A stretch of DNA of 64,000 bases from Dehalococcoidia bacterium (lineage in GTDB: Bacteria > Chloroflexota > Dehalococcoidia > Lucifugimonadales > CAUZJF01): positions 416,964 to 480,963 of the forward strand of contig CBDFGS010000009.1 of NCBI GenBank assembly GCA_965247255.1, in the 5' to 3' direction. The notes below the pieces were generated by a model. The model ran no database searches and was not told where the DNA came from. It saw nothing but the letters and a program-made list of their open reading frames with translations. The translations under genes were made by a program, and so were the position numbers. Each line of letters opens with the position of its first letter. Positions within the stretch are counted from its first letter, which is position 1. Below, piece after piece: positions 48,803 through 64,000 of this stretch.

Positions 48803-48838
48803 CAGAGCTAACGCGCGTCGTTCGGGACACCGAGCGCC
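48803..48838 (+). other. partial tRNA-Pro-like fragment (D-arm to anticodon-arm)
   Basis: AACGCGCGTCGTTCGGGACACCGAG compared with TAGCGCGCGTCGTTCGGGACGACGAG in the intact tRNA 60 nt downstream. Confidence 0.6.
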
Positions 48839-48872: not shown

Positions 48873-48948
48873 CGGGGTGTGGCGCAGTCGGTAGCGCGCG
48901 TCGTTCGGGACGACGAGGTCGCTGGTTCGAGTCCAGTCACCCCGACCA
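48873..48948 (+). tRNA. tRNA-Pro (anticodon CGG)
   Basis: Manual cloverleaf: acceptor CGGGGTG/CACCCCG, D-arm GCGC-AGTCGGTA-GCGC, anticodon arm CGTCG-TTCGGGA-CGACG, T-arm GCTGG-TTCGAGT-CCAGT, discriminator A, encoded CCA. Confidence 0.9.
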
Positions 48949-49143: not shown

Positions 49144-50407
49144 ATGGCCCGCTCACCTCACCCAAAGCTCGAAGGAGCGCCGCATTTCGACTTCGAGAGG
49201 CGACATATGATGATCGAGGGGTCCTACTCTGTTATTCCGACAAAGCCCATTGAGGTCGGCAACGAACGCCAGTTGTCATCTGCCAGGGCTCCGAGCGGCC
49301 GCACCCTCGGAAGCGATACTCTTCGACGGATTGACGCAAGATCCCGCACCTGGGTCACGTTTGAGGTCGCCGCAACTGGCCACGACGCTTCGGACCATAG
49401 CGAAGCACGGGAAAGAAGTCTTCTATACTGGCGAGCTTGCCCAGCGCATGGTGACGGCGAACCGGCATGCCGGTGGCCTCTTCCATGCGGACGACCTAGC
49501 GGATTACGATGCCGTTTGGCGCGAGCCCGTCGATATCGGCTATCGGGGATTTCAGATATATACCACGCCGCCCAACTCGGCCGGATTCCAGATCTTGAAC
49601 ACGCTGAAGCTGCTGGATGGTTCCGACGAACTGGCATTTCAGGAGCCGCGTAGCCTGCACCTCACGATCGAGGCCGTCAAGCTCGCCACCGCCGACCGGA
49701 TCGCATATGCAGGTGACCCTGACTTCGTGGAGATTCCCTTGGAGAGGCTCCTGTCCCAGGAGTATGCGGCGCGACAGAGGAAACGAGTCCGCGAGGACAG
49801 CTCGACCGCCTTATCTAGCAGCGAATCAAGGTTACCTTGGGATAAGGCGAGCACGACGCACTTTGCAGTCGCCGACCGTGACTGCAATGTAGTAACGATA
49901 ACCCAGACGCTGGGCAACGGATTTGGTTCGGGAGTGGTTATAGGTGACACGGGAGTCTTCCTCAACAACATGTGCAAGTGGTTCTCGCTCGACGAAGGAA
50001 GCCCGAACCTAATCGGACCGGCAAAGAGGGTAGACTTCGTTCTGGCGCCGACACAGACGCTCAAGGATGGCAGAATTCACCTCAGTATCGGCACGCCAGG
50101 CAGCGGTGGAATCCTCCAGACCACACCGCAGGTGCTGATGCATCTGTTGGAATACGGGCTGAACGTTCAGGAGTCCATCGAGGCCCCTCGATTCACCTGC
50201 GATCAGCGACTCAGCGTCGGTCTGGAAAACCGGTTCCCGCGAGAAGTGTTGCGACAGCTTGCGCTGCGCGGCCACCAGGTGAGGCTTGTCGACCCCTGGT
50301 CGAGAGGTGGCTTTGGGGGCTTTCAGGGGATCAGGGTAGACCACGGCGAGGGGGTCTTTCAGGGTGGCGCTGATCCCAGGCGCGACGGCCTTGCCGCTGG
50401 ATGGTGA
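49144..50407 (+). pseudogene. ggt: gamma-glutamyltransferase with an internal deletion and frameshift
   Basis: AGGAGG plus the ATG at 49144 opens a GGT-like N-terminus (FDFERRHMMIEGS.SVIPTKP). From about 49300 a different frame carries the C-terminal two-thirds (QLATTLRTIAKHGKEVFYTGELA...TTPPNSAGF...ASTTHFAVADRDCN...GTPGSGGI...PRRDGLAAGW). About 125 aa, including the GGNAVDAAVA region, are missing. Confidence 0.65.
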
Positions 50408-50436: not shown

Positions 50437-50585
50437 GGGGAGTCCACAGATCCTTCCGGTTCCCTGACCGGATTCACTATTCGGCGTCGTCGCCACTAGG
50501 CGCCTCTGAAAGGCACGCCCACTTCTCGACCGCTATCCCGAGCTCTTTCACCAGCGGCGCACCGGACCGACATTGACATCGATGT
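50437..50585 (-). repeat. small-ORF repeat unit, degenerate copy G
   Basis: The minus strand reads ...DVNVGP...LSEAPSGDDAE* followed by TGAATCCGGTCAGGGAACC and GGACTCCCC. Frames are broken. Confidence 0.6.
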
Positions 50586-50751
50586 AACAACGATCCTAGA
50601 CTGCTCAGGCCCACTGGACTCTTAGGTAGGCAGGCCGTTAGGGCCGCCGCAACGGTCTAGCGCACTCCACCGAGGAAAGACATCGCCAGAACCCCAATCG
50701 CTTAACATGTAGCCAGGTTACTTCGTCTGCGGAAATCCTGAGAGGACCAAC

Positions 50752-51304
50752 ATGGCACGATTGCCCTACGCTTCCAGAGAAGACCTGCCGCGGCACAAGC
50801 AAAGCGTATATGATCGCATCGCCGAAACACGGGCCGGCGCCGAGTCGGGGCAGGGAATGCCGCACTCCTTTCAGGCCCTATTGAACAGTCCGGACGCCCC
50901 AGAGGTTTGTCGCCGCTCTCGGCGAGTATCTCCGATTCAAGTCGCCGCTCGACCCGATGGTACGCGAGACCGCAATTCTGGCCGTGGCTCACGAACTGGA
51001 AAGCCAGTACGAGTGGGCCCACCACGAGCCCATAGCCCGGAGAGTTGGCGTCCGGGACGAGGTCATCGAGTCGATTAGAAGCGGTATGGCACCGATGGGA
51101 CTGCCGGCGAAGGAGGGTGTGTTCGCGCAAGCCTCTAAGGAGCTGGCGGGGAAGGGCACGATGACGGAGCGCACGTTCCAGGCGATCCTGCACCTGCTCG
51201 GCCCTCAGCAGACCGTGGACCTAGTCGTGCTGATCGGTTACTACTCGATGCTTGCCGGCGCTCTTAGTGCACTCGACGTCGAGCTGGAGCCCGAGCTAGA
51301 GTGA
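50752..51304 (+). pseudogene. carboxymuconolactone decarboxylase (AhpD-like) family gene split by a frameshift
   Basis: Frame 1 reads MARLPYASREDLPRHKQSVYDRIAETRAG...FQALLNSPDAPE. The homologous continuation FVAALGEYLRFKSPLDPMVRETAILAVAHELESQYEWAHH... is in the +1 frame from about 50905. Confidence 0.7.
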
Positions 51305-51360
51305 AAGTGGGCCCGGCCGGCCTGGCAAGTGGTCAGCTCTGCAGTCTGAGTTCGGACGAC

Positions 51361-52227
51361 CTAAGCCCCGTTGGGTCGAGGTCGCCCCAGGAGATTCAAG
51401 AGCTTATCGCTGGCCGTACGCAGTGCGTCGTCAGCTACGGGCACGCGGTTGTACAGGTTGAAGCGTGTGTACGCCCAGCGGGCCGCGTACTGCGACTGAA
51501 AAAGGTAGCGCGTGCGGTCCGAGGTGTTCGGCGCACCTCGATGCCAGCACTTCGGGTCTTGCAGGTAGATGTCGCCTGCCTTGCAGAATACTGAGACGGG
51601 TCCCTTCCCGTCGAACTCTGGGTTGTCCTGATCGTTGGGCGTCCGACCCGAGTAATGGCTGCCCGGGACGTATTGCGTCGGACCGTGCTCTATCGACTCA
51701 GTGTCGCTCAACGCCATTTGCACCGTAAGCCAATAAACAGGCATCCGGACCCTGGGGTCGTGCCGTTTGATGTCGTCCGGGAGCGGGAAGTACGCTTCCC
51801 CCCCATCGCAGTGCCACCTGTCGATTGACAGTCCCGGCAAGTTCCGAATGACGTTTTGCCCGCAAAACTTGCTGTCTTTGCCCACTACGGCTTCGGCCAG
51901 ACTGAAGATTGGCTCGCGCACAAGCATGTCACGGAAAATCTGGTCGAGTTCAATGCTGTTTCTGAGTATGAAGGGAAGCTCTTCGCTTGAGGTCTTGTGG
52001 TCCTTCACCTGCACGTATCTCGTGTCTCCCAGGTTCGGATTGAACCGCGCTTGCAACTCGGGATCGTCGAGGAGTTGGTCCGTCTTGTCGCGAAGCGCCG
52101 AGATCTCCCCCGGAGTAAGCACGCCTGGTATATAGACGTACCCATCGCGGAAGAACTGCTCCGCGATCTCCTGGTTCTTCTGAAGGCTAAACGGTTCTCC
52201 GGCTAATATCGGAGTATCGGCCATCAT
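51361..52227 (-). CDS. phytanoyl-CoA dioxygenase (PhyH) family Fe(II)/2-oxoglutarate oxygenase
   Basis: 288 aa: FFRDGYVYIPGVL...RWHCDG...GPTQYVPGSH...GDIYLQDPKCWHRG. Confidence 0.8.
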   Translation of the reverse strand: MMADTPILAGEPFSLQKNQEIAEQFFRDGYVYIPGVLTPGEISALRDKTDQLLDDPELQARFNPNLGDTRYVQVKDHKTSSEELPFILRNSIELDQIFRDMLVREPIFSLAEAVVGKDSKFCGQNVIRNLPGLSIDRWHCDGGEAYFPLPDDIKRHDPRVRMPVYWLTVQMALSDTESIEHGPTQYVPGSHYSGRTPNDQDNPEFDGKGPVSVFCKAGDIYLQDPKCWHRGAPNTSDRTRYLFQSQYAARWAYTRFNLYNRVPVADDALRTASDKLLNLLGRPRPNGA

Positions 52228-52358
52228 CGTCCTCCCTGTTCGTGTCGTTAGTATACCTTCGCGACAACGGGCTACGGATATCAGTTCGAGTCGTCAAAGA
52301 CCGGCGCAATACGGACGTTCCCAGGACGTGGCAAGGTACCGCACTGCAACCGGTGCTG

Positions 52359-52531
52359 AGTCCCCAAACTGGGGAGTCCCCAAGCTAACGCCGGTTCCCC
52401 GACCGGGTTCACTTCTGCGCATCGTCCCTACCAGGCGACTCCACAGTCACACTAGGATCGGCAGCATCCAAGGCCTTGCGGCTACTGACTCTATGAGGGC
52501 GGCGAAGTCCTCGTCGCAGAGCTGAATATCC
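52359..52531 (-). repeat. small-ORF repeat unit, 5'-truncated and frameshifted copy A
   Basis: The minus strand reads ...EDIQLCDEDFAALIESVAA and then (frameshift) KALDAADPSVTVESPGRDDAQK*, followed by TGAACCCGGTCGGGGAACC and two GGGGACTC motifs. It abuts the stop codon of the NHL gene. Confidence 0.65.
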
Positions 52532-53830
52532 TCACGGGCCTACTGACGCCGAGACCTTGTGTACGACGTTGTTCTTCTTGTCGGCCAGGAAGATCTCGCC
52601 CAGATCGTTGACTGCGATGGAAACGAGTTCGCCCACCACTCCGGTATGGACCTGGATCTTGCCGGTTTCATAGCTTGTCTCGCTCTCGCCGGCCACGACC
52701 GTGGTAATAGTGCCAGAAGCTGAGTCTACCTTGCGAACGCGGATGCCGCCTTCAGCGATGAAGATGTTGCCGTCTCGGTCCAGGCTAATCGCGGACGGCG
52801 TGTGCAGCATCGCTTGATTCGCTGGGCCTCCGTCGCCAGCGTAGCCGGCTCCGGTCGCCGCGGCCTTGGATATCGGACCCCAATCCCCACTCATATATGC
52901 AGCGGTCGTTCGTTCGTAGTGCTTTCCAATGCCGGCGACGGTGGTAATGGTGCCGGTGGCCCCGTCCACTTTACGGACGCGGTGGTTGTCGCTATCGGCA
53001 ATGTAGATGGTGCGCTGGCCATCCAGTGCAATGCCCACCGGTTCGGCCAGCTCGGCCTCTGTAGCGGGACCGCCGTCCCCCTTCAATCCACGTTGTCCTG
53101 TTCCGGCTACGGTAACGATTACTCCCGTAGCAGCGTCGACCCGGCGGATGCGGTTATCAGTCGCAATGTACAGGCTCCCTTCGCGGTCTACAGCGACGTA
53201 GTCCGGCGACTTGATAAGGGCCTGTGTTGCAGGCCCACCATCGCCGAAGATATTCTTCCGTGGGTCGCCTATACCTCCGCCTGCCACGGTCGTGATGATG
53301 CCCGTGGTTGCGTCGACCATACGAATCCGGCCGCTGCCGTTCTCCACGATAAACACGTTCCCAAAACCGTCTACTCCTATACTCTTGGGGTCTGCAAGGG
53401 AGGCGTCTGTCGCAGGAGCACCATCGCCATCCGATCGATTCCTTCCCGTACCGGCGAACGTCGTAATGATACCGTTGGTCGCTTCGACCTTGCGTACGCG
53501 ATTGTCCGTGGAGATAAGCAGGTTACCCTTGTCGTCCAGGGCTACGCCGTTGGGCGCAAAGAAGCCCGACTCGGTCGCCGGGCCTCCGTCCCCCTCGAAC
53601 GTAGAGGAGCCGGACCCAGCGTAAGTGGCGATCTCTCTCAGGGCATTCGCAGTATCCGCCCTTGCCGCCAATCGGCCAGCCGGCTCCTGAGCGGGCGGTC
53701 CGACTCCCACAGGATCATCAGCTGCGCCACACGCCGCGACCACCGGGAGCGCCATAAGCAAGGCGAGGAAGGCTAGTAGCGGCCCCGTCCAAGTATCCGG
53801 TAAGAGATGGTAAGCGGCTCTATGGGCCAT
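52532..53830 (-). CDS. NHL-repeat beta-propeller lipoprotein
   Basis: 432 aa with a lipobox-like LPVVAAC. There are at least six repeats of GDGGPAT.A.L..P..IA.D..GN.(Y/F)IAD..N.R(I/V)RKVD..TG.ITTVAG. Confidence 0.8.
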   Translation of the reverse strand: MAHRAAYHLLPDTWTGPLLAFLALLMALPVVAACGAADDPVGVGPPAQEPAGRLAARADTANALREIATYAGSGSSTFEGDGGPATESGFFAPNGVALDDKGNLLISTDNRVRKVEATNGIITTFAGTGRNRSDGDGAPATDASLADPKSIGVDGFGNVFIVENGSGRIRMVDATTGIITTVAGGGIGDPRKNIFGDGGPATQALIKSPDYVAVDREGSLYIATDNRIRRVDAATGVIVTVAGTGQRGLKGDGGPATEAELAEPVGIALDGQRTIYIADSDNHRVRKVDGATGTITTVAGIGKHYERTTAAYMSGDWGPISKAAATGAGYAGDGGPANQAMLHTPSAISLDRDGNIFIAEGGIRVRKVDSASGTITTVVAGESETSYETGKIQVHTGVVGELVSIAVNDLGEIFLADKKNNVVHKVSASVGP

Positions 53831-54017
53831 TCCGGTGCGTCCTCGCGCGAATCACGGAGCTGAGACTAGGACTAGAGTCCCCAAACCCGCGCAGGTTCCC
53901 TAGTCGCTTGAGTCCCCCTCCCCCACGCGACTCCCTGACCGGGTTCACTTTCTGAGGCCCTTCCCCCTTGGTATCGCCGTCCTTCTCCACATGGACTCGT
54001 CTCGCCCTCGGCCTTAC

Positions 54018-55721
54018 CCCGAATCCACCGAAGGACGTCCTTGGGGACAGCCCTTGAAGAAGCCAGCGGGTGCTCCTCTGAATCTGGGATAATGGTTTTG
54101 GAACAGAAACCCGCCCGGAAACAAGGAGCACCCAATAGATGCTGCCACAGAACAAACCCGACCGTATCCGCATCCTCTTTGACGACCATCGCCTGGTGGC
54201 CAATGCCGGCCTGCTCCTGCCGGCCACCCTAGCCCGGCACCTGGGCCTGCGGGAACTCGTCGACCATCACCTTGACCTCGGCGGAGCGCCGGGACGGGCG
54301 AACACTGGGGACAAGATGCTGACGCTGGTCGCTTCCGCGCTGGCAGGCGGCGACTGCATCGACGACGCCGATGCGCTGCGCGCTGGTGGGACGGTTGGTG
54401 TTCTAGGCTGCGTGGTCAAGGCGCCATCCACCCTGGGGACCTTCCTGCGCAGCTTCCGGTGGGGGCATGTCCGTCAACTCGACCGCGTGAGCCGCCAGTT
54501 GTTGGCCCGGGCCTGGGCCGCTGGGGCCGGACCCGGCGACTCGCCCCTGACCATCGACCTGGACTCGACCATCTGCGAGACCTATGGACTGGCCAAGGAG
54601 GGAGCGCGCCACCACGGCTATACCGGCGCCCGCGGCTATCACCCGCTGCTGGCCATTGCCGCCGGCACCGGCGAGGTGCTGATGTCCCGGCTGCGCGAGG
54701 GCCGGGCCAACACCGCCCGTGGCGCCGCCCACTTCCTGCGTGAGACGGTGGGGCGGGTGCGCTACGGCGGGGCCAGGGGACAACTCACGGTGCGGGCCGA
54801 CAGCGGCTTCTACGCCCACACTGTCGTTGCCGCCTGCCGGGAAATGGATGTCCGCTTCTCTATCACCATCCGCCAGCGCGCCAGGCTGCGGGATCTGATC
54901 GAGGCGATACCAGAGGAGGACTGGACTCCCATTCCCTACTGGATGGACGGCGCCGCCGATGTCGCCGAGACGACTTACACCCCGTTCCAGACCAAGCCGG
55001 ACGCCGCGCCGGTGCGGCTCATTGTCCGGCGGGTGAAGCCGACGCCCGGTTCCCAGCTCGCCCTCTTCGCCAGATACAGCTATCACGCCTTCATCACCGA
55101 CCGCGATGGGGAGACGCTGGAACTGGAGGCCGATCATCGCCGCCACGCCGAGGTCGAGAACGCCATACGCGACCTCAAGTACGGCGTCGGGCTGAACCAC
55201 ATGCCGTCGGCGCGCTTCGCCGCCAACGGCGCCTGGCTGGCGGTCCAGGTGATGGCGCATAACCTGGCCCGCTGGACGGCGCGGATTGGTCTGGGCGAGC
55301 GGACCGTGATCACCAAGACCCTCAGGCGGCGGGTCTTCGCTCTGGTGGGACGGATCACCCGCTCGGCGCGCCGCCTCACTTTGCATCTCCCCCGGCGCTG
55401 GCCTTGGGAAACCCAGTTCACTCGCGCCTTGGCCCGGCTGCAAGCCATTCCGTTCCCGGCCTGACGGCCAGCCTGCAACTGACCCAACGTCCCCGCAATC
55501 TCGCGCCACCCCGGTCGCGAGAGTCCCCTGCTGCGTATCCTCTCGCCTTCCCGCGCATCGCAACTCCCGCATAGGGCCTTAGGGGCCCTGTGCGGCCACT
55601 GAAGACCGCCCGCCGGCCTCCCATCTACCCCAAGACCCCAGGCCATCTCCCCTGTAGCTCCCTCACCCACCCCCTTCCGCTGCCCTCACGCCGTCCATCG
55701 GTGTCCTTCGGTGGATTCGGG
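54018..55721 (+). mobile_element. IS1380-family insertion sequence (1704 bp)
   Basis: Perfect 19-bp terminal inverted repeats: CCCGAATCCACCGAAGGAC at 54018-54036 and its reverse complement at 55703-55721. They are flanked by a 5-bp direct repeat CTTAC (54013-54017 and 55722-55726). A single DDE transposase ORF lies inside. Confidence 0.88.
54139..55464 (+). CDS. IS1380 family DDE transposase
   Basis: 441 aa: LVANAGLLLPATLARHLGL...GGDCIDDADALR...IDLDSTICETYG...GYHPLLA...VRADSGFY...HAEVENAIRDLKYGVGLNHMPS. Confidence 0.88.
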   Translation: MLPQNKPDRIRILFDDHRLVANAGLLLPATLARHLGLRELVDHHLDLGGAPGRANTGDKMLTLVASALAGGDCIDDADALRAGGTVGVLGCVVKAPSTLGTFLRSFRWGHVRQLDRVSRQLLARAWAAGAGPGDSPLTIDLDSTICETYGLAKEGARHHGYTGARGYHPLLAIAAGTGEVLMSRLREGRANTARGAAHFLRETVGRVRYGGARGQLTVRADSGFYAHTVVAACREMDVRFSITIRQRARLRDLIEAIPEEDWTPIPYWMDGAADVAETTYTPFQTKPDAAPVRLIVRRVKPTPGSQLALFARYSYHAFITDRDGETLELEADHRRHAEVENAIRDLKYGVGLNHMPSARFAANGAWLAVQVMAHNLARWTARIGLGERTVITKTLRRRVFALVGRITRSARRLTLHLPRRWPWETQFTRALARLQAIPFPA

Positions 55722-55825
55722 CTTACGCCTTGCTGGACCGAATGCACTAGCGCGTCGAAGTCCTCGTTGCTCAGGCGGTTGATGGGCGAATCCCAAATCG
55801 AATAAGCCACGCTGACGTCCTGTAA

Positions 55826-56037
55826 GGAGTCCCCTCTACATCCCAGGTTCCCTGACCGGGTTCACTTCGGGGCATCCTCCCCGTCAGGCGCTCCCTCGAC
55901 GGTGACCTTAGGCTCACCAGCCTCGAGCTCCGCACGCCGTGCACCCACACTCTCGACCAGGGTTTTCGATTTCCGCATCGAAAGCCGGCCTAACGAACGT
56001 GTCTCTATGGGTGGGCCACATTAATGCGGAGTCCCCA
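55826..56037 (-). repeat. small-ORF repeat unit copy C (degenerate; residual 38-aa ORF at 55862-55978)
   Basis: The minus strand reads INVAHP(frameshift)IETRSLGRLSMRKSKTLVESVGARRAELEAGEPKVTVEGAPDGEDAPK*, followed by TGAACCCGGTCAGGGAACC and GGGGACTCC. Confidence 0.65.
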
Positions 56038-56140
56038 ATCCCGCCTGACTCCCCTGACCGGGTTCACCTTTCGAGCATCGTCCCCGTCATTCGACCACGA
56101 TATCAGGAGCATCGTTAGGATAGCTACCGCCGCGAGCCCT

Positions 56141-56317
56141 TCAATCATCTTCGTCAGGCTCCTCCACCGTGACCTTGCGCTCGCCGGCCTCAAGGGCCGC
56201 ACGCACGCCTTGGGCTACGGCCTCCACGAGTGACGCGAAGTCCTCGTCACGAAGCTGGTTGATGCGCGGAGTCTCTATGTGTGGTTTGACGTTCACTGTA
56301 CTCTCATTAGGCCACAT
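56141..56317 (-). CDS. small-ORF repeat unit copy D (58 aa from the ATG, 51 aa from the GTG)
   Basis: (MWPNEST)VNVKPHIETPRINQLRDEDFASLVEAVAQGVRAALEAGERKVTVEEPDEDD*. The 3' motif GTGAACCCGGTCAGGGG is at 56077-56061 and GGGGACTCC at 56046-56038. Confidence 0.45.
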   Translation of the reverse strand: MWPNESTVNVKPHIETPRINQLRDEDFASLVEAVAQGVRAALEAGERKVTVEEPDEDD

Positions 56318-56319
56318 GC

Positions 56320-56478
56320 CTATAGAGCGCCCGATAGCTCATAGCTACGTACGCGCGCGTTACCATTCCCGCTTTCATCATTAGCAAGGTCGCGCAGACG
56401 CTTGGTCACCCACTCTTCCGACATTTCAGCGTCGGATGTGAGCTCAGCTAGGGCGTGATCCCTATCGAAGCCGGTCAT
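56320..56478 (-). CDS. 52-aa ORF resembling the C-terminal part of a phage small terminase subunit (tentative)
   Basis: MTGFDRDHALAELTSDAEMSEEWVTKRLRDLANDESGNGNARVRSYELSGAL. The ...ARVR..E/K.L... segment aligns with ARVRALKILARYQ in the 61559-61870 ORF, where it is fused in frame to the copy-D-like part. Confidence 0.3.
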   Translation of the reverse strand: MTGFDRDHALAELTSDAEMSEEWVTKRLRDLANDESGNGNARVRSYELSGAL

Positions 56479-56648
56479 CCATAGTTCCTAACAGGCAGTT
56501 CAGTTAGTCAATACTGTTCGCGTTGTCGCGCTGCGTCTTGCTACCGCTAATGACCACCACCGCGGGCGAAATAGGAGCTCGGCTACGACTCAGCGCTGGC
56601 CACCATAGTCCAGTCGACCGTACCCGATGTTGCGCAGGGAGGCCTCGC

Positions 56649-58556
56649 CTACCAGTAGATCGGTCCCTCCTCTGACACGAATCGCTGAGTCTTGCGCCAG
56701 CGCGTGCTGTTCTCCCGGTAGTGGTCTCGCTGGTAGAACGGGGAAAACCGTCCCGGAGGATCGATGTTGACCACGTCGTTCCCTTTGACCGAGAGAATGT
56801 AGCGTCGCTTCTCTATGTCGACGTTTTTCACCTGCTCACCGATGGGAAACGTGAGCTGCACTTTCTGTGCCGGCACGACAGGCCCCACGGCAACGTAGCG
56901 CCCCTCCACCGCAGTATCGCGGGGCTCTCCGTCCACGGAGCAGGCGGCGTCCTTGGGGTCCACCCACTCGGGAAGGCGTATCTTCAGCTTGCAGGGCTGC
57001 TTGACGTGGACGTCCACCCGTCCCTCGTAGGGGATGTGGCTGTGCACGTCGGCCCAGGAGGAGGGACGGTTGAGGAGCAGGTTCACGCTGAGCTCGCCAT
57101 CGCGGTGAGTGAGCATGTGCTCCCAGACGTAGTAAAGGGCACGTGTGGCGTTCCCCGTGCAGCAGTGCATTATGCCGCTGCCCTGTCCAACGTAGAAATC
57201 GTTGGCCGCCGGCCACCCGGCAAACGAGCCAATATTCCTCTCCGGCACGCGCTCAGTTGTCTCGAACGACTCATCGATCTGCGATTGCCGGACCCGTCGC
57301 CTGGGGAAGACCTGTCCACCCATATGCATGCGATAGATCCAGTCGCCGCGGCGGAGCTGATTTTCGGCGAACTGGTTGCGAATCCATCGGTCTGCGTCGT
57401 CCCAGTAGTCTCCAAGACCGGCGTGACTGAGTTTGAGGGCCAGGCCGATCATACCTGCGACCTCGCACGTCTCGGAGCCCTCGAATTCGGTGTTGTCGAT
57501 GTTCTCGGGGAAGTAGCCGACGGTGAGTTCCCCCTTGTTCTTCGCCCAGTCGAAGGACCGGCGCACGAACTGCGCTATCTCGTCGTCTCCCGCGGCCAGA
57601 GCGTAATCGAGCATGCCCAGCAGCGGGACCATATGGTGTTGGAAATGGGTGAAAGACTTCCCGGGGGTCGGCCCCGGATCAAATGGGAAAGTGTCTCCCA
57701 TGTCTGAGCGCTCGCTCCTGTTCTCTCCGGCATGATTGGGCAGGAATTCACCGTTGGGCCCGTAGTAGACCCCGTGGTGGGCGATATATCGGGCCAGCTT
57801 CCCTGCCAGTTGTCCCGCCGGCTCGTAGCCTGAAGCACGGTAGAAGTGCGACAACCCCTGTGCAGTCCACCCAGCCAGGCTCGACCAGATGCCAATCGGC
57901 ATTTCGGCGAGGCGTGGGCGGGGACCGTCGGGGACAAAGGCGCCTTGTGGAAAGTAGGCGTAGTCGCCCTTATCGATCGCCAGACTGCTGAGCGCTTGCA
58001 CCACTCTCTCGATCTCTGAGCGCCAGGGCCCCTCTGGGTCCCTTAGCATATACAGAGTCATCGCTGAAACGGTCCTGCCGACGAACAAGGGGACGGCGTA
58101 ATGGCTCGCCTCGGGGGCCGGCGCTGACCAATCAGGCTTCTTGGCCCAGGGAAACGCGGGCCAGTAGACCAGGCCGTCTGGTCCGATCATGCGAAGCGCC
58201 GCAGACATCCAGACGGGGTCCACGTGGTCGTTCTGCTGGCTGCCGCTGGCAAGGCGCATGAGCGGGAGCGCCTCCATGAACTTCGTCTGGCAGATGTCCG
58301 CGGGCCCGTGGTTCATCACCGGTGGATTGGCGCTCAAGTCGACTTTGAAGTAGAGCAAGTGGTCTTTATCGGGGTCGGTAGGCCCGGTCAAACCGTTCAC
58401 TGCAAGCGCGCAGCGCTCCTGGATATCGAGCGTGTCCGGGACCATGGCGTCATAGCGCTGGAAGCTGTACTCTGGCACCTCGAACTCTGGGATCTCCTGC
58501 CGAATATGGCTGATCGCCTGGCCTCGTTCCGGTCTTCCTTCAAGTTGACCTTTCAT
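56649..58556 (-). CDS. DUF1680/GH127-like (alpha/alpha)6-barrel protein (tentative)
   Basis: 635 aa. ETCEVAGMIGLALKLSHAGLGDYWDDADRWIRNQ and HCCTGNATRALY resemble the conserved Glu and Cys-Cys motifs of beta-L-arabinofuranosidase-like proteins. By eye only. Confidence 0.5.
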   Translation of the reverse strand: MKGQLEGRPERGQAISHIRQEIPEFEVPEYSFQRYDAMVPDTLDIQERCALAVNGLTGPTDPDKDHLLYFKVDLSANPPVMNHGPADICQTKFMEALPLMRLASGSQQNDHVDPVWMSAALRMIGPDGLVYWPAFPWAKKPDWSAPAPEASHYAVPLFVGRTVSAMTLYMLRDPEGPWRSEIERVVQALSSLAIDKGDYAYFPQGAFVPDGPRPRLAEMPIGIWSSLAGWTAQGLSHFYRASGYEPAGQLAGKLARYIAHHGVYYGPNGEFLPNHAGENRSERSDMGDTFPFDPGPTPGKSFTHFQHHMVPLLGMLDYALAAGDDEIAQFVRRSFDWAKNKGELTVGYFPENIDNTEFEGSETCEVAGMIGLALKLSHAGLGDYWDDADRWIRNQFAENQLRRGDWIYRMHMGGQVFPRRRVRQSQIDESFETTERVPERNIGSFAGWPAANDFYVGQGSGIMHCCTGNATRALYYVWEHMLTHRDGELSVNLLLNRPSSWADVHSHIPYEGRVDVHVKQPCKLKIRLPEWVDPKDAACSVDGEPRDTAVEGRYVAVGPVVPAQKVQLTFPIGEQVKNVDIEKRRYILSVKGNDVVNIDPPGRFSPFYQRDHYRENSTRWRKTQRFVSEEGPIYW

Positions 58557-58839
58557 GAGTTAGCCTCCTCTTTCTTTCGACGCTGGTTATCCTCCGGGCA
58601 GGGACCTTCTAGGGAGGCGTGTGCACAGGAAACTGCTCACGTTCTTCATCGGAGAGGAGTTGCGTAACCTCGAACCCCTGGGCCAGCTCCAGTACGCGTT
58701 TAGCCGCACCTCCCGATTCCTTGCCTACTGTGAAGTCCACGTACCTCCGCTGCACATAGGTATCGATAGCCGGGAACCGTCTGGCGACGTACGAAGATCA
58801 GCCCGAGCGCGGTTGGGGCGGAGCGGTGGCGGTCGCCCC

Positions 58840-59640
58840 TCAGTTCAAGTGGGAGCCGCCGCTGACGTTGAGCGCCTGGCCGGTGATGTTCCGGGCGCGG
58901 TCGGACGCGAGAAAAGCGACCGCGTGGCCGATGTCTTCGGGGGTCTGCTCCCTGCCCAGGGGGATGCTCTCTTTCGCCGTCCGGTCGAATATCTCTCGCT
59001 CGGTCAGGCCTTCGGGGGCATCCCGTAGCATCCGCCTGCGGCTGGCTACACGCTCCCACATCGGTGTCCACAGGAGACCGGGACAGATCGCGTTGACGTT
59101 GATGCTGAACGGAGCAAGGTCCAGGGCGAGCGTCTGCGTCAGGTTGATGACGCCGGCCTTCGACGCCGAGTAGATCTGGCTTGTCGGCGAGCCTAGCCGG
59201 CCCGCCACCGACGCTATGTTCACGATCTTGCCGTAGCGCCGCTGCTTCATGTGGGGGGACACGGCGTTGGCCACCCTGGCGACACCTTTGAGGTTGACGG
59301 AGAAGACCAGGTCCCAGTCCTCCTCGTTCAGAGCTTCGCGCTGTTCCCAGCCCGGCGCGCCGACGACACCGGCGTTGTTGACCAGGATGTCGATGCGTCC
59401 CAGGCGCTCCAAGACGTCGGCGACCATCTTGTCCACGGACGCCTGCTCCGTTACGTCGAGGGAGGTCGCGATGGCGCCGCGTTCCATCTCCTCGATCTCA
59501 GACGCCACGCCCTCAGCGTCCTCCGAGTTGATGTCCGCGACCGCGAGGTCTGCGCCATTCTGGGCGAGGACCATCGCGATGGCCCGTCCTATGCCGCGGC
59601 CTCCGCCTGTTACCAGCGCTACCTTGCCGCTCACGTCCAT
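58840..59640 (-). CDS. SDR family oxidoreductase
   Basis: 266 aa: TGGGRGIGRA, NNAGV, YSASKAG. Confidence 0.9.
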   Translation of the reverse strand: MDVSGKVALVTGGGRGIGRAIAMVLAQNGADLAVADINSEDAEGVASEIEEMERGAIATSLDVTEQASVDKMVADVLERLGRIDILVNNAGVVGAPGWEQREALNEEDWDLVFSVNLKGVARVANAVSPHMKQRRYGKIVNIASVAGRLGSPTSQIYSASKAGVINLTQTLALDLAPFSINVNAICPGLLWTPMWERVASRRRMLRDAPEGLTEREIFDRTAKESIPLGREQTPEDIGHAVAFLASDRARNITGQALNVSGGSHLN

Positions 59641-60139
59641 CCGACAGCGTCCTCCGTGCGTCCGGAAATTGGGGCGCCTATTATATCACGGGCGGCCTCT
59701 GTGGAGACGTGCGAGGAGCCGGCCTAGACCGTGGTAATCGTCTCGGCGAGCGCGAACACGCAGGAGCTGCCAGGACGGCCCATGGCGCGGCGCCAGATGT
59801 CCCTTCGTGCAAGGCTCACCCCCGGTCGCTTTGCCGTCGATGGTAATGCTTGCGCCGTCGGTGAAGAAGATCAGTAAGTAGTTCACCGCTTGGCCATCAA
59901 AGACCGGATCGGGGCCCCTCCAGAATTAAAGGCGCCTGCACCAGGGACCAGGTGGCTATCGCCGTCCCGCGCTCAGTCGTAATGCGCCACCAAGCCGAGC
60001 GGGCCGTCATACACCCCCACCGGGCTCCGTTTCCGTACCTGAAGGCCCAAAACGGCGCCACGAACATCCGTGCGACTTCGCAGCGCATGTTAGCAAAATG
60101 TTTGCAAGATCACTGTCGCCGGATAGATGAAGAAACGGG

Positions 60140-60955
60140 CTAGTACTGGGTCTGCTGGCCCATGGGGGCAAAGGTGTGCGGAGTTACCGTGAGGAGACCG
60201 GCGTCCACCGGCAGCACCACGCCAGTAACCCAGCGGGCCTCGTTGCTGGCCAGATAAAGGGCCGCATATCCGACATCCCAGGCGGTACCATCGGTGGCCA
60301 GGGGTGCTGCATTCTTGCGGCGCTCCCGCCCGGCCGCGTCCAGCCGAGGGGCCACGATGGGGGTGTAGATCAGGCCGGGGGCGATGCAGTTGACCCGGAT
60401 GTTTTCCCTGGCGTGGTCGGCCGCCATGGAGATGGTGAGGCCGATGATCCCGGCCTTGGACGACGTGTAGGCGCTACTGCCGGCGGCCCTCAGCCCAGCG
60501 ATGGAAGATATGTTGACGATGGCACCGCCTCCCCCTTCGATCATCTTGGGAATAGCGGCGCGGCTGGCCAGCATCATGCTTTTCAGGTTAACGGCCATTA
60601 CCCGGTCCCAGTCCTCTTCGGCTACCTCCAGCACCGACCCCCGCATCGCTATCCCCACGTTGTTGTCCAGGATGTCCAGGCGACCGTACCGCTCTACCGC
60701 GGCTTGCACCATGCGGACGCAGTCGCCGGCCTTGGTAACGTCGGCCTGGAAGACAGAGGCTTCACCCTTCGCCTCCTCGATCATGGCTAGGGTTTCCTTA
60801 GCCCGCTCCTTCACCATGTCCACCAACAACACGTTGGCCCCTTCCCGGGCAAACAACACCGCGGTGGCTTTTCCGATGCCGATACCCGCGCCGCTGGACC
60901 CCGCGCCGGTGACGATTGCCACCTTCCCTTCCAGTCTGGGACGTCGTTCCGGCAT
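60140..60955 (-). CDS. SDR family oxidoreductase
   Basis: 271 aa from the ATG at 60955: VTGAGSSGAGIGIGKA, NNVGI, YTSSKAG. Confidence 0.9.
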   Translation of the reverse strand: MPERRPRLEGKVAIVTGAGSSGAGIGIGKATAVLFAREGANVLLVDMVKERAKETLAMIEEAKGEASVFQADVTKAGDCVRMVQAAVERYGRLDILDNNVGIAMRGSVLEVAEEDWDRVMAVNLKSMMLASRAAIPKMIEGGGGAIVNISSIAGLRAAGSSAYTSSKAGIIGLTISMAADHARENIRVNCIAPGLIYTPIVAPRLDAAGRERRKNAAPLATDGTAWDVGYAALYLASNEARWVTGVVLPVDAGLLTVTPHTFAPMGQQTQY

Positions 60956-61143
60956 CGGAATGCACCTCACATTATCTCCAAGTTCTGGGACGCCAGGAGG
61001 ACCACGACCTAGAACTCTATCTTCGCCACCTACTAGATGTCCAATGCTCTCGGGTGAGATTGACATCGTATCAAGTGGTAGATACGCTGGCTCAGTTTTC
61101 CGCGGCGAGAAACAGCGGATATCTTTTGCGGAGGAGGAGCAAG

Positions 61144-61440
61144 ATGGCTAGAGACGCAGTGGCGGTAGCGCCTGATCACTACTCGGTGGTGGAAGATAAC
61201 GACCGCGTCAGAATTCTGGAGTTTCGCGGCGGTCCCGGCACCGTGACCGAGATGCATTCGCATCCCACGATGGTCGTCGTGGCCCTGACCAACGCCAAAG
61301 TCCGCTCCACTCTGCCCGATGGCCAGAGCAGAGAGATGGAGCTGAATTCCGGTACGGTGATGTATCAGGACGCTAAGGACCATGCGACGGAGGTCCTGGG
61401 GAGCTCCGAGACCCGTGTCATACTGATAGAGTTGAAGTAA
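61144..61440 (+). CDS. small cupin-like protein
   Basis: 98 aa, preceded by GGAGGAGGAG: EFRGGPGTVTEMHSHPTMVVVAL...VILIELK. Confidence 0.6.
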   Translation: MARDAVAVAPDHYSVVEDNDRVRILEFRGGPGTVTEMHSHPTMVVVALTNAKVRSTLPDGQSREMELNSGTVMYQDAKDHATEVLGSSETRVILIELK

Positions 61441-61477
61441 GTGCGTATCATCGTGTGGATGTTGCCATCGCGGGACT

Positions 61478-61870
61478 CCAGACCGGGTTCGCGGCTGAGC
61501 GGCTCCCCCTACGCCGCTGCATCCTCGTCTTCCCCAGTGCTCGCGTCGTTTGGGTGCTTCAGCGCCGCGGTGGCGCGCCATCCGCGGTAACCGTAGGCTC
61601 CCTCTCCGCCAATGACTTACGCCTTGCCTCGAAGCTCTCCACAAAGGCGTCGAAATCCTCATTGGAAAGCTTGTTGATGCGGGAATTTTCGATGGAGTGC
61701 GACACGTTGATGTGCTGCCTGTCGACCAGCATGTCTTGGTATCTGGCGAGAATCTTGAGGGCCCTCACTCTAGCTGAAAATGGGCAAGCCGCTTGATCCA
61801 GCGACCCTGACGCGTAACTTCGAGAAGCTGGCCCGACATGCACGTCAGGTTTCACGATCTCCGCCACCAC
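61478..61870 (-). CDS. small-ORF repeat family member F (103-aa ORF at 61559-61870 plus the 3' motif)
   Basis: ...ARVRALKILARYQDMLVDRQHINVSHSIENSRINKLSNEDFDAFVESFEARRKSLAEREPTVTADGAPPRR*. A degenerate 3' motif GCGAACCCGGTCTGG lies at 61492-61478. Confidence 0.45.
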
Positions 61871-61995: not shown

Positions 61996-62353
61996 ATGAC
62001 CGTCGACGCCGAAGGCTACGTGTGGTCGGCCCATGCCGGCGGCTCGTCGTTATACCGCTACACGCCCCAGGGCTCGGTCGACAGGGTGATACGCTTCCCT
62101 GCCAAGCTGGTCTCCAGCGTCGCCTTCGGTGGGAACGGACCTGAGGGACATCTACGTTACGACCATCGGCGGCGACGACCGGGAGGAGCACGGCCCGGGC
62201 GCGGACGCGCTGTTCAGGCTGCGGCCCGGCATAAAGGGCGCGCAGATTCCTCTCGTGCGTCGGGCTATGAGGCAAAGCGGCGACGTCTACCCCGACGGCG
62301 TGCCGCCGGTCAGCAGTCCCCCGTCGACTGTAATGCACTGGCCGTTGACGTAG
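61996..62353 (+). pseudogene. SMP-30/gluconolactonase/LRE-like gene remnant (C-terminal ~90 aa only, frameshifted)
   Basis: DAEGYVWSAHAGGSSLYRYTPQGSVDRVIRFPAKLVSSVAFGG, then a 1-nt shift near 62134, then (T)DLRDIYVTTIGGD...ALFRLRPGIKG. The N-terminal ~200 aa expected for this family are absent. Confidence 0.6.
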
Positions 62354-63072
62354 TCGCCGAGGTCTGAGCAAAGGAACAGCACGGCGCCGGCGATGTCGTT
62401 GGGCACCCCTCCCCTGCGGGACGGAATCCAGTTGCGCTTGGCCTCCTCCGCATAGCCTGGGCCGGCCCGCAGGTGCTCGCGCTCCGCGGGCAGAAGGCGA
62501 CTGTCGATGTAACCGGGGGCCACGCAGTTGGAGGTTATGCCACTCCCGGCCATGTCCAGGGCCATGCTCTGTGCCATACGCACCAACCCAATCTTGCACA
62601 CGCCGTACACCATATCGTCCGGCCAGGCCCGAAAGGCGTGCACGCTGCTGATACTTACGATCCGACCTCCCCCTCCCTGCCTGACCATCTCCCGGGCGGC
62701 CCGCTGGCTGCACAGGAAGTAGCCCTTGAGGGCGTTACCCACCACGAAGTCCCAGTCCTCCTCCGAGATGTCCAGGAAGGACCCATCGCGGCTGGCCACG
62801 GCGTTGTTGACCAGTATGTCGATCCTGCCGTGCTCGGTCACAAACTCGTCAACCATCCGGCCGACCTGCCGGCTATCGGAGATATCGGCGAGATGCCAGC
62901 TAGCCTTCCGTCCCTCGTCGCGCACCATACCCATCGTGTCCTCGGCGGCCTGGTCCCGCTCGATGTCGTTCATTCCTATGTCCGCGCCCTCCCGGGCCAG
63001 GAGTACCGCGATACCCCTTCCGATTCCGCGTCTGGAGCCGGTAATCAGCGCCTTCTTGCCTTCCAAAAGCAT
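62287..63072 (-). CDS. SDR family oxidoreductase
   Basis: 261 aa: TGSRRGIGRG, NNAV, YGVCKIG. Confidence 0.9.
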   Translation of the reverse strand: MLLEGKKALITGSRRGIGRGIAVLLAREGADIGMNDIERDQAAEDTMGMVRDEGRKASWHLADISDSRQVGRMVDEFVTEHGRIDILVNNAVASRDGSFLDISEEDWDFVVGNALKGYFLCSQRAAREMVRQGGGGRIVSISSVHAFRAWPDDMVYGVCKIGLVRMAQSMALDMAGSGITSNCVAPGYIDSRLLPAEREHLRAGPGYAEEAKRNWIPSRRGGVPNDIAGAVLFLCSDLGDYVNGQCITVDGGLLTGGTPSG

Positions 63073-63208: not shown

Positions 63209-63478
63209 TCAGGTGTTGGACGGAGGTCCGGTGAGCTCTCTGAGGGCCCTGTTGTAGCGTCTTCGCCGTTCGATCATTTGAGCCTGCACCTCCTTTCTGC
63301 GTTGTAGGATCTTCTCTTCGGAGGTGTACTTGCGCCGGGTAGCCGATCTGACTCGTCGGACAAAGGATCTGGTCTGCTCGGTCCGCTCCTCGGCGGCCTC
63401 TGGCTTGCCTACTGTTGATTGGGTCACACCTGCTCCTTTCTCGGGTAACTCTACCCTCAGTCCAGGAGCTCCCACCAC
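63209..63478 (-). CDS. hypothetical basic protein
   Basis: 89-aa ORF. The RRKYTSEEKI segment faintly recalls IS3 OrfA proteins, but the similarity does not extend further. Confidence 0.25.
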   Translation of the reverse strand: MVGAPGLRVELPEKGAGVTQSTVGKPEAAEERTEQTRSFVRRVRSATRRKYTSEEKILQRRKEVQAQMIERRRRYNRALRELTGPPSNT

Positions 63479-63704
63479 CCTCCCACTCTCGGGTTCTTTA
63501 GCCCTCAGATGTGTCCCATTCTCGCTGACGGTCTAAAGACGACCATATCGCCTACCTCCAGCGGCCCATCCTGGAGGCGCAGGAGGCGCTCCGCCGACGG
63601 AGGGAGAGGGCGGGACACTGATTCCGGCCTACCTACACTACTCAGTTGTCCATAGCGCCGTAGTCGGCTAAGATAAACGTCCCCGCATCAGGAGGTCACG
63701 GCAC

Positions 63705-64000
63705 GTGGCAATTTTCTTATATATCTCAATCTCAGAAGAGGACAGGATCTCGATTTTCGAGTTGAACGCTGAAACTGGCCAGCTAGGCCATCAGGGCGAT
63801 GTAGCACTCCCTAATCCATACCCACTTGCAGTGGACCCTGAGAGAAAAGTCTTATATGCCGGAAGCCCCAAATCTAAAGAGGTCTCCAGTTTCCGCATAG
63901 ACCGGAGTACGGGAGGACTCTCGCTAATTGGGACGGCGGCGCTCGAGAGCTCTCCCTGCTATCTGGCCACCGATAGAAGGGGCAATTTCCTGCTCTCCGC
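63705..64000 (+). CDS. lactonase family (7-bladed beta-propeller, 6-phosphogluconolactonase-like) protein, 5' part
   Basis: GTG at 63705, 9 nt after AGGAGG: VAIFLYISISEEDRISIFELNAETGQL...PYPLAVDPERKVLYAG...VSSFRIDRSTGGLSLIG...PCYLATDRRGNFLLSA. It runs off the window end. Confidence 0.65.
   Translation, partial: MAIFLYISISEEDRISIFELNAETGQLGHQGDVALPNPYPLAVDPERKVLYAGSPKSKEVSSFRIDRSTGGLSLIGTAALESSPCYLATDRRGNFLLS

Follow-up and report, generated by a model that had tools for sequence, protein, structure and literature searches.

What leaves a series of small reading frames, all in one orientation and most of them ending at the same DNA motif, beside a tRNA gene of a bacterial chromosome? The question is raised by 64,000 nucleotides of a Dehalococcoidia bacterium (contig CBDFGS010000009.1 of assembly GCA_965247255.1, positions 416,964 to 480,963; hereafter the window), in which an initial annotation had described units made of a small open reading frame (ORF) and a conserved motif as an element without known counterpart. 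That description gives way to another: the peptides correspond to the C-terminal part of a phage small terminase subunit (TerS), and the units are, as judged from homology, 3′ relics of a phage-type small-terminase gene (terS) of the SPP1/SF6 G1P-like kind. The stop codon of these relics is joined to a two-box DNA site that is far better conserved than the gene fragments themselves, and it is the function of this site that has to be explained.

The layout of the units was largely described correctly at the outset. A motif and profile search of the 64 kb recovers the six same-orientation copies (F, D, C, B, A and G; seven should D be composite), every one of them on the minus strand and located at 50.4-61.9 kb, with none in the other 50 kb of the window; D, C and B adjoin head to tail, and A, G and F stand outside the tandem (Table 1). 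Box 1 of the site, GTGAACCCGGTCAGGG, occurs five times at no more than one mismatch (exact in three copies, one mismatch in two), always on the minus strand, where 0.09 occurrences are expected by chance. A DNA profile of the units matches D at 56333-56013, C at 56026-55823, B at 55831-55722 and 54027-53878, A at 52588-52342, G at 50649-50403 and F at 61743-61474, and finds no further copy in the 64 kb; the profile was trained on those six units, and the absence of further copies is the informative part of this search. Also as first described, copy B is split by an insertion sequence (IS), which has 19-nt terminal inverted repeats (CCCGAATCCACCGAAGGAC), a 5-bp target duplication (GTAAG) and a transposase of 441 aa (54139-55464; Pfam DDE_Tnp_1_4, E = 1.7e-59), and an intact gene for an NHL propeller lies between copies B and A.

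Identity and state of the reading frames

The 58-aa peptide of copy D has no word-sharing relative but itself among 5.8 billion proteins, neither it nor the 52-aa ORF upstream of D matches Pfam, and the Pfam matches of the 103-aa ORF are sub-threshold and unrelated (E up to 10). A peptide profile built from the aligned in-frame pieces of F, D, C, B and A was searched against 1.84 billion representative proteins; besides ORFs of the window, it matches only P0123 (178 aa, E = 3.8e-13) and P0124 (190 aa, E = 8.8e-12) at E < 1e-10. P0123 scores 35 bits against Pfam Terminase_2 (cut-off 26.1) and reaches E = 6e-18 against PHROG 51 (terminase small subunit), and a tblastn search with it retrieves genes annotated as terS from 150 phage records of GenBank, that of Salmonella phage ES18 among them. 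The profile of the TerS family, in turn, matches the solved small terminases of Pam5 (PDB 21di) and SF6 (PDB 3zqp).

The homology can be followed into the single copies. Copy F is 45% identical to P0123 over 73 aa in BLASTP (E = 4e-19), and the 52-aa ORF matches TerS residues ~64-107 (E = 4e-6), a region that constitutes the oligomerisation core (EWVTKRLRDLA..ARVR). Aligned with hhalign, the units match the TerS family with a probability of 97.8% (E = 8e-13), their peptides falling on the oligomerisation core and the C-terminal tail with the conservation pattern (I/V)NV..IE..RIN.L..EDF..LVE.V. Core and tail are what the units share with TerS of the SPP1/SF6 type (Terminase_2, PHROG 51); in contrast to these proteins, the window copies lack the helix-turn-helix (HTH) domain, are damaged in frame and have no terL, and are gene fragments rather than terminases. 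A ribbon-helix-helix or antitoxin reading of RIN.L..EDF finds no Pfam match and is superseded by the TerS homology.

One of the two relatives has a peculiarity of its own. The N-terminal part of P0124, which is encoded on a 1.05-Mb contig, is rich in Pro, Ser, Thr and Ala and shows no similarity to the HTH domain. This part could be a frameshifted reading of the HTH region; if so, the relative's chromosome also holds a decaying terS of this rare type.

The stubs are truncated at their 5′ ends to different degrees. The N-terminal HTH DNA-binding domain is absent from every copy, tblastn with P0123 and P0124 finding residues ~64 onward only, and the cut points lie near TerS residues 60, 120, 135 and 150: F and the 52-aa ORF with D begin near residue 60, C and B near 120, A near 135, and a possible mini-fragment inside D near 150. 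Copy F holds TerS residues ~93-164 in frame (tblastn 61777-61577) and more upstream in another frame. The first part of D (D1) covers residues ~114-165 and has its own stop codon with no box directly after it; a stop codon and a shift of 2 nt lie between it and the 52-aa ORF, and ~57 extra nt stand ahead of the motif in D, a part that may be a seventh mini-fragment. D and F had been singled out as intact, yet both are 5′-truncated fragments, F being frameshifted upstream and D split from the 52-aa ORF.

Frame damage is general. Copies A and C, initially listed as frameshifted or truncated, each carry a frameshift, that of C being a 1-nt shift between INVAHP and IET; A follows the NHL stop codon without a gap, and B combines frameshifts with the IS. 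An uninterrupted frame of approximately 140-190 aa is found in none of the copies, each being broken by a frameshift, a stop codon, the IS or truncation, with one to three frame-breaking lesions per copy. As genes, the stubs are non-functional. The starts of D1, C and B, each an ATG or GTG, fall on or close to the conserved internal Met of TerS. Past the terS stop, only ~13 codons of a GTG-started frame follow, and no terL-like sequence was found in the window.

Table 1. Positions of the terS stubs, their two-box sites and the features around them in the window
Feature	Position	Strand	Content or evidence
Copy F, terS stub with degenerate site	61464-61870	-	BLASTP/tblastn with P0123; sequence reading
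52-aa ORF upstream of D	56320-56478	-	BLASTP with P0123, E = 4e-6; alignment; tblastn
Copy D1, 58-aa ORF	56141-56317	-	tblastn with P0123/P0124 at 56320-56147; profile alignment
D2, ~57 extra nt and mini-stub (..DIVVE / DGDDARK)	56028-56140	-	box 1 56052-56067; box 2 56028-56036
Copy C	55826-56026	-	box 1 55850-55865; box 2 55826-55834
Copy B, 5′ part	55722-55825	-	QDVSVAYSIWDSPINRLSNEDFDALVHSV; TerS residues 120-148; tblastn 48% identity
IS splitting copy B, apparently intact	54018-55721	+	DDE transposase; inverted repeats; target duplication
Copy B, 3′ part, frameshifted	53875-54017	-	box 1 53933-53948; box 2 53910-53917; second box 2 53875-53882
Copy A	52358-52531	-	box 1 52397-52412 (1 mismatch); box 2 52374-52381; second box 2 52358-52365
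Copy G, most degenerate stub	50438-50650	-	box 1 50462-50477 (1 mismatch); box 2 with 1-nt deletion
GTGAACCCGGTCAGGG sites	50462-50477, 52397-52412, 53933-53948, 55850-55865, 56052-56067	-	motif search
Two SDR genes between copies F and D	58840-59640, 60140-61066	-	Pfam
GH127-like gene between copies F and D	56649-58556	-	Pfam
NHL-repeat beta-propeller gene, intact, between copies B and A	52532-53830	-	Pfam TEN_NHL, E = 2e-36
PhyH-family dioxygenase gene, intact, between copies A and G	51361-52227	-	Pfam PhyH, E = 5e-20
tRNA-Pro(CGG), border of core genome (1-48 kb) and accessory stretch with all stubs	48873-48948	+	

The two-box site at the terS stop codon

Aligned on the motif, the copies are nearly identical in two places, box 1 (16 nt) and box 2, GGGGACTCC. 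Pairwise identity averages 0.95 in box 1 and again in box 2, 0.35 in the spacer between them and 0.30-0.34 in the flanks, so that the motif is indeed better conserved than the reading frame, as had been noticed before. The second box had been placed 12-40 nt downstream; the spacer instead measures exactly 15 nt in D, C, B and A, with a 1-nt deletion there in G, and A and B carry an extra GGGGACTC (box 2) copy that starts 16 nt (A) or 35 nt (B) after the first. In copy F, the motif is reduced to GAACCCGGTC (GCGAACCCGGTCTGGA) at 61481-61490, box 2 is missing, and the stop codon comes 19 nt before the motif. The earlier statement that every unit has its stop codon inside the motif and a box after it does not hold for F.

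At the motif, the terS stop overlaps a GTG (AAG-TGA / GTG-AAC), and a Shine-Dalgarno-like GGGGAGGA stands 9 nt upstream of the overlap. The GTG frame runs through both boxes and the spacer as M-N-P-V-R-E-x4-(W/G)-G-L, the 15-nt spacer corresponding to five codons. Of 60 pair comparisons at third codon positions of this frame within the boxes, 4 show a difference; in the terS part, the share is 63% (Fisher p = 8e-18). Since synonymous positions in the boxes are nearly invariant, ordinary coding constraint does not explain the conservation. The boxes are constrained at the nucleotide level, which is what the initial annotation had concluded from the motif.

The site also marks the end of what the copies have in common. 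Similarity between copies ceases ~40-56 nt past the stop, after box 2 or, in A and B, after the second box 2; five copies share exactly this 3′ limit, the 5′ limits being variable, and no direct repeats besides the boxes recur in the accessory stretch. Eleven viral contigs encode relatives of this TerS; in these, terS is succeeded by a gene that begins after its stop codon or overlaps it, and several of the genes in this 3′ position have GKS-type Walker A motifs, as expected of terL. The motif therefore sits at the passage from terS to the next gene of a packaging operon. Searches of 185,579 reference genomes, JGI metagenomes and IMG/VR returned only chance matches to the motif.

Several familiar identities for such a repeat were tried and set aside. 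An ECF-type or sigma-70 promoter at the boxes lacks a conserved -10 element at a workable spacing, and a scan showed neither a promoter nor a terminator there. A terminal repeat of a miniature inverted-repeat transposable element (MITE) or an IS does not fit either, all copies lying on one strand within 11.5 kb and the inverted repeats and target duplication belonging to the separate IS. Neither of the two outcomes that had been named as grounds for dropping the units as a novelty, a MITE/IS terminal repeat and a toxin-antitoxin antitoxin family, applies here, the repeat being confined to one strand and one region and the peptides matching no antitoxin family.

Origin of the copies and function of the site

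How six stubs came to lie in one stretch can be read in part from their divergence. Pairwise nucleotide identity of the coding parts is 0.5-0.65, with pS ~0.65 (near saturation), pN ~0.43 and differences of 0.43/0.40/0.63 at the three codon positions. Saturated synonymous sites, together with a coding pattern of change and few lesions, argue that the copies diverged mostly under protein-level selection, in separate functional terS genes. We infer that they did not arise by on-the-spot duplication of dead fragments and that their sources would have been several related, already diverged phage-like elements; the locus appears to have received DNA from at least six of them, in one orientation.

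Two arrangements offer themselves for comparison. P0128, a relative of this TerS, is encoded in a small island (L090) together with a P4-type integrase, an AlpA-type HTH protein and an AAA_25 gene and without terL. Satellite-like islands that carry terS therefore exist in this clade, and satellite-like elements of the order terS, site, variable genes are plausible as sources. The terS-carrying satellites of the SaPI/PICI-like and P4-like kinds likewise combine terS without terL with variable accessory genes after it; unlike them, the window has stubs only and no satellite hallmark genes. The same island has a repeat of its own, three copies of a 44-nt sequence with hairpin-like TGTCCGCTTT..AAAGCGGACA at 1866-2262 of L090, just upstream of the island's terS. 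The second arrangement is that of the Neisseria pilS silent cassettes with their Sma/Cla repeat, which are 5′-truncated, stand head to tail in the same orientation and have a 3′ flank conserved as DNA. The window resembles it in its head-to-tail, 5′-truncated copies with conserved 3′ DNA and differs in showing no expressed full-length locus, in its frameshifted copies and in the metabolic genes that lie among them.

The reading we favour, with a probability of about 0.4, is that the repeats are relics of related prophages or satellites beside tRNA-Pro and that the boxes are their cis-acting site, most probably of the packaging (pac) type. Prophages or terS-carrying satellites would have entered the locus in one orientation and afterwards have been mostly deleted. 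The boxes would be a putative packaging-recognition site read by the elements' own TerS, asymmetric and ~16 bp long; its place at terS would recall P22, and its additional contact boxes SPP1. Beyond the site would have lain the accessory part, which varied from element to element. With source elements of the order terS, site, variable genes, conservation would naturally end after the site. More speculatively, given a cognate helper phage, headful packaging could still set out from the sites and proceed in the direction of lower coordinates, through the genes that follow.

What speaks for a pac-type site is its form and the company it keeps. The conserved DNA is asymmetric, lies at the terS stop and occurs in one orientation only, and the TerS family concerned is that of SPP1/SF6, which are headful packagers. 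The pac site of P22 is a 22-bp asymmetric sequence inside terS, and that of SPP1 comprises several contact points (PMC9611059). The window site is like these in being an asymmetric sequence of ~16 bp at terS with short extra boxes, conserved as DNA and attached to a TerS family of pac packagers. It is unlike them in that it is found at the stop codon, and not within terS or ahead of it, and in being present as multiple chromosomal copies without a phage; its pac role is putative.

Other observations weigh against the pac-type reading. From the GTGA overlap and the Shine-Dalgarno-like sequence, it seems that terS was succeeded by another gene, perhaps terL, in the elements of origin. Five copies could then share one 3′ limit only if a break had occurred at a specific site, and such a break speaks for a recombination site rather than pac. 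Copies C and B have no genes after their sites, and the whole picture comes from one genome. Pfam scans of the main ORFs of the window find no integrase, recombinase, terL, portal or other phage gene. Likewise, tblastn with 765 ORFs from 26 related viral contigs matches no phage gene remnant in the window.

We rank the pac-type reading slightly above its nearest rival, a possible if doubtful one, in which the boxes are the core or recombinase-binding part of an attachment (att) site and attP lay at the terS stop. Serial integration followed by illegitimate deletions would then have left a row of junctions between a P arm (the terS stub) and the core, and the genes between them would be cargo or captured host DNA. 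Box 1 is a direct repeat at the module junctions with at most one mismatch, and the status of the boxes as the sole recurrent direct repeats, the common orientation of all copies and the combination of a shared 3′ limit in five copies with variable 5′ limits all fit this account. So does the occurrence of one 16-mer in diverged stubs, as expected if different elements must match one target, and the minimal unit, C, at ~200 bp has the size of a lambda-type attP. Against it, the window has no integrase; the unconserved 15-nt spacer is a poor fit to the overlap region of a tyrosine recombinase or to the inner half-sites of a serine integrase; nothing is conserved 3′ of box 2, where a P′ arm is expected; and none of the copies is a junction with a non-terS left flank, of the attL type. 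In addition, we know of no precedent for an attP at the terS/terL junction.

Accretion of integrative elements as such is a familiar process, seen in att-flanked relics of the CIME type and in tRNA islands, and the window shares with it same-orientation repeats that bracket unrelated modules beside a tRNA gene, an IS and pseudogenes. It departs from it in that the repeat is tied to the 3′ end of terS and is not tRNA-derived and that no integrase lies in the window. A tRNA-derived att was among the candidates discarded, as the repeat does not derive from a tRNA and no tRNA-Pro 3′ repeats occur in 49-64 kb.

The boldest reading, which we consider unlikely, is that the boxes still work today as a handle by which a phage machinery takes hold of ordinary chromosomal genes. 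The locus would then be a phage-derived cassette system, every gene or gene group having kept a terS-end site in the one orientation, and the neighbouring genes would be mobilised at high frequency by a helper-phage terminase, through directional headful packaging from each site, or by a trans-acting recombinase.

Quite unlikely, too, is a local family of small genes, in which the C-terminal domain of TerS was co-opted, for instance for packaging interference, amplified in tandem and then left to decay, with the boxes as a regulatory or translation-coupling signal. The start of D1, C and B at or near an internal TerS Met and the conservation pattern of the peptides are what such a family would show. 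Yet all copies are now broken, their 5′ limits differ (F and D reach back to residue ~60, A starts from ~135), and A, G and F lie outside the tandem; moreover, the searches of 5.8 billion and 1.84 billion proteins yield full-length TerS and no short-protein homologue, and the boxes show no promoter or terminator signal.

We give as little credence to the plainest account, by which the boxes are nothing special: the start of terL (M-N-P-V-R-E-x4-W-G-L) with its ribosome-binding region, sharing a 3′ limit by coincidence and kept alike by constraints on the protein and on translation initiation in the source phages. The GTGA overlap, GGGGAGGA at 9 nt and a spacer of exactly five codons are consistent with such a start, as is the position of terL, following or overlapping terS, in the 11 related viral contigs. 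The near-invariant synonymous positions in the boxes (4/60 versus 63%, p = 8e-18) are difficult to reconcile with it, however, as are the loss of similarity at the same place in five copies and an in-frame stop codon inside the spacer of C.

Less credible again are phage-derived cassettes, each of gene(s), terS stub and boxes, whose movement would depend on a trans-acting recombinase or terminase from another locus, in the manner of integron cassettes and attC. Co-oriented genes (NHL, PhyH and the GH127/SDR group) are bracketed by sites, the NHL stop codon abuts stub A, and 'empty' 200-bp units stand in tandem. An integron cassette array has the same look of co-oriented genes, each followed by a recombination-site-like repeat, with short 'empty' units and an IS inside the array; in contrast to it, the window has no IntI, R''/R' cores or hairpin, and its repeat includes a pseudogene fragment. 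No IntI-type integrase was found within the window, the two boxes are both G-rich and cannot pair as complementary R''/R' cores or a hairpin, their folds are not significant, and no second genome with a different cassette order was found. An integron attC had also been suggested by an apparent CCTAACGA...TCGTTAGG pair in D and C, which lies within the diverged coding part and is missing from the other copies.

Least probable is a structured RNA at the transcript 3′ end (a small RNA, a stability element or a recoding, SECIS-like signal at the UGA inside the motif), for although a small CCGGU-loop-ACCGG hairpin is possible in A, G and C, it is missing in D and B, Rfam at gathering thresholds recognises tRNA-Pro only, the six 3′ regions have fold z-scores of -0.6 to +1.3 against shuffled sequence, and selenocysteine insertion or read-through at the UGA is contradicted by unconserved downstream frames and by a TAG directly before the TGA in G. 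Among the nucleic-acid roles first proposed for the motif, the recombination site and the packaging site remain the two leading explanations, and the RNA element, with no Rfam match and no significant fold, is not supported.

The accessory stretch and its meaning

The stubs lie in a part of the window that differs from the rest. Core genes fill 1-48 kb, among them those for PriA, TrmD, RsmH, FtsA, FtsZ, NrdR, ribonucleotide reductase and ProC, and the decaying accessory stretch (49-64 kb) begins at tRNA-Pro. Its GC content is slightly below that of the rest of the window, and it contains all stubs, the IS, a truncated gene for gamma-glutamyltranspeptidase (GGT) and a frameshifted gene of the carboxymuconolactone-decarboxylase (CMD) family. 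Intact metabolic genes, mostly on the strand of the stubs, stand between them: the NHL propeller, the PhyH dioxygenase, a GH127-like gene and three SDRs. The GH127-like gene and two of the SDR genes form the group between F and D (56649-61066, minus strand). No tRNA-Pro 3′-end copies were found in 49-64 kb.

Smaller features fill in this picture. Between tRNA-Pro and stub G, the GGT gene (49250-50407, plus strand), to whose 3′ end copy G is convergent, is N-terminally truncated as judged from a profile match to 141-512 of 512 only. The CMD-family gene (50752-51304, plus strand) is read in two overlapping frames, 50752-51078 and 50957-51304, and is probably a frameshifted pseudogene. A third SDR gene at 62287-63072 (minus strand) is paralogous with the two between F and D and has DNA repeats in common with them, the three forming a local paralogue cluster within the accessory stretch. 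On the other side, ~35 nt upstream of the intact tRNA-Pro, a fragment of a tRNA-Pro anticodon arm occupies 48807-48838, with 17 nt identical (48812-48828) and ~26/32 nt similar, which suggests an old rearrangement or integration event at tRNA-Pro. An 89-aa basic ORF with RRKYTSEEKILQRRKEV at 63209-63478 (minus strand) has no Pfam match, and the start of a gene that runs off the window at 63700-64000 (plus strand) reads by eye as lactonase or beta-propeller-like. The nearest homologues of one neighbouring gene come from Dehalococcoidia-type and other environmental genomes; beside homologues of the GH127-like gene, stubs were looked for and none was found.

The TerS family and arrays of mobile-element remnants beside tRNA genes are well known. 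To our knowledge, an invariant two-box site at the terS stop kept by at least five independent stubs is new, as is the association of such sites with interspersed intact host-type genes. For the most part, then, the finding comes down to a phage packaging gene left as pseudogene stubs in an accessory region under decay. The unusual feature is the combination, at least six diverged stubs with the same two-box site, one orientation and one 3′ limit, and intact metabolic genes between them. If the sites are of the pac type, the locus would be a natural case of chromosomal genes tagged for directional phage packaging; if they are att sites, they would represent an attachment site at the terS/terL junction, such that integration splits the packaging operon. 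Either case, if true, would be a testable addition to what is known of the phage-like shaping of accessory regions in a poorly studied lineage.

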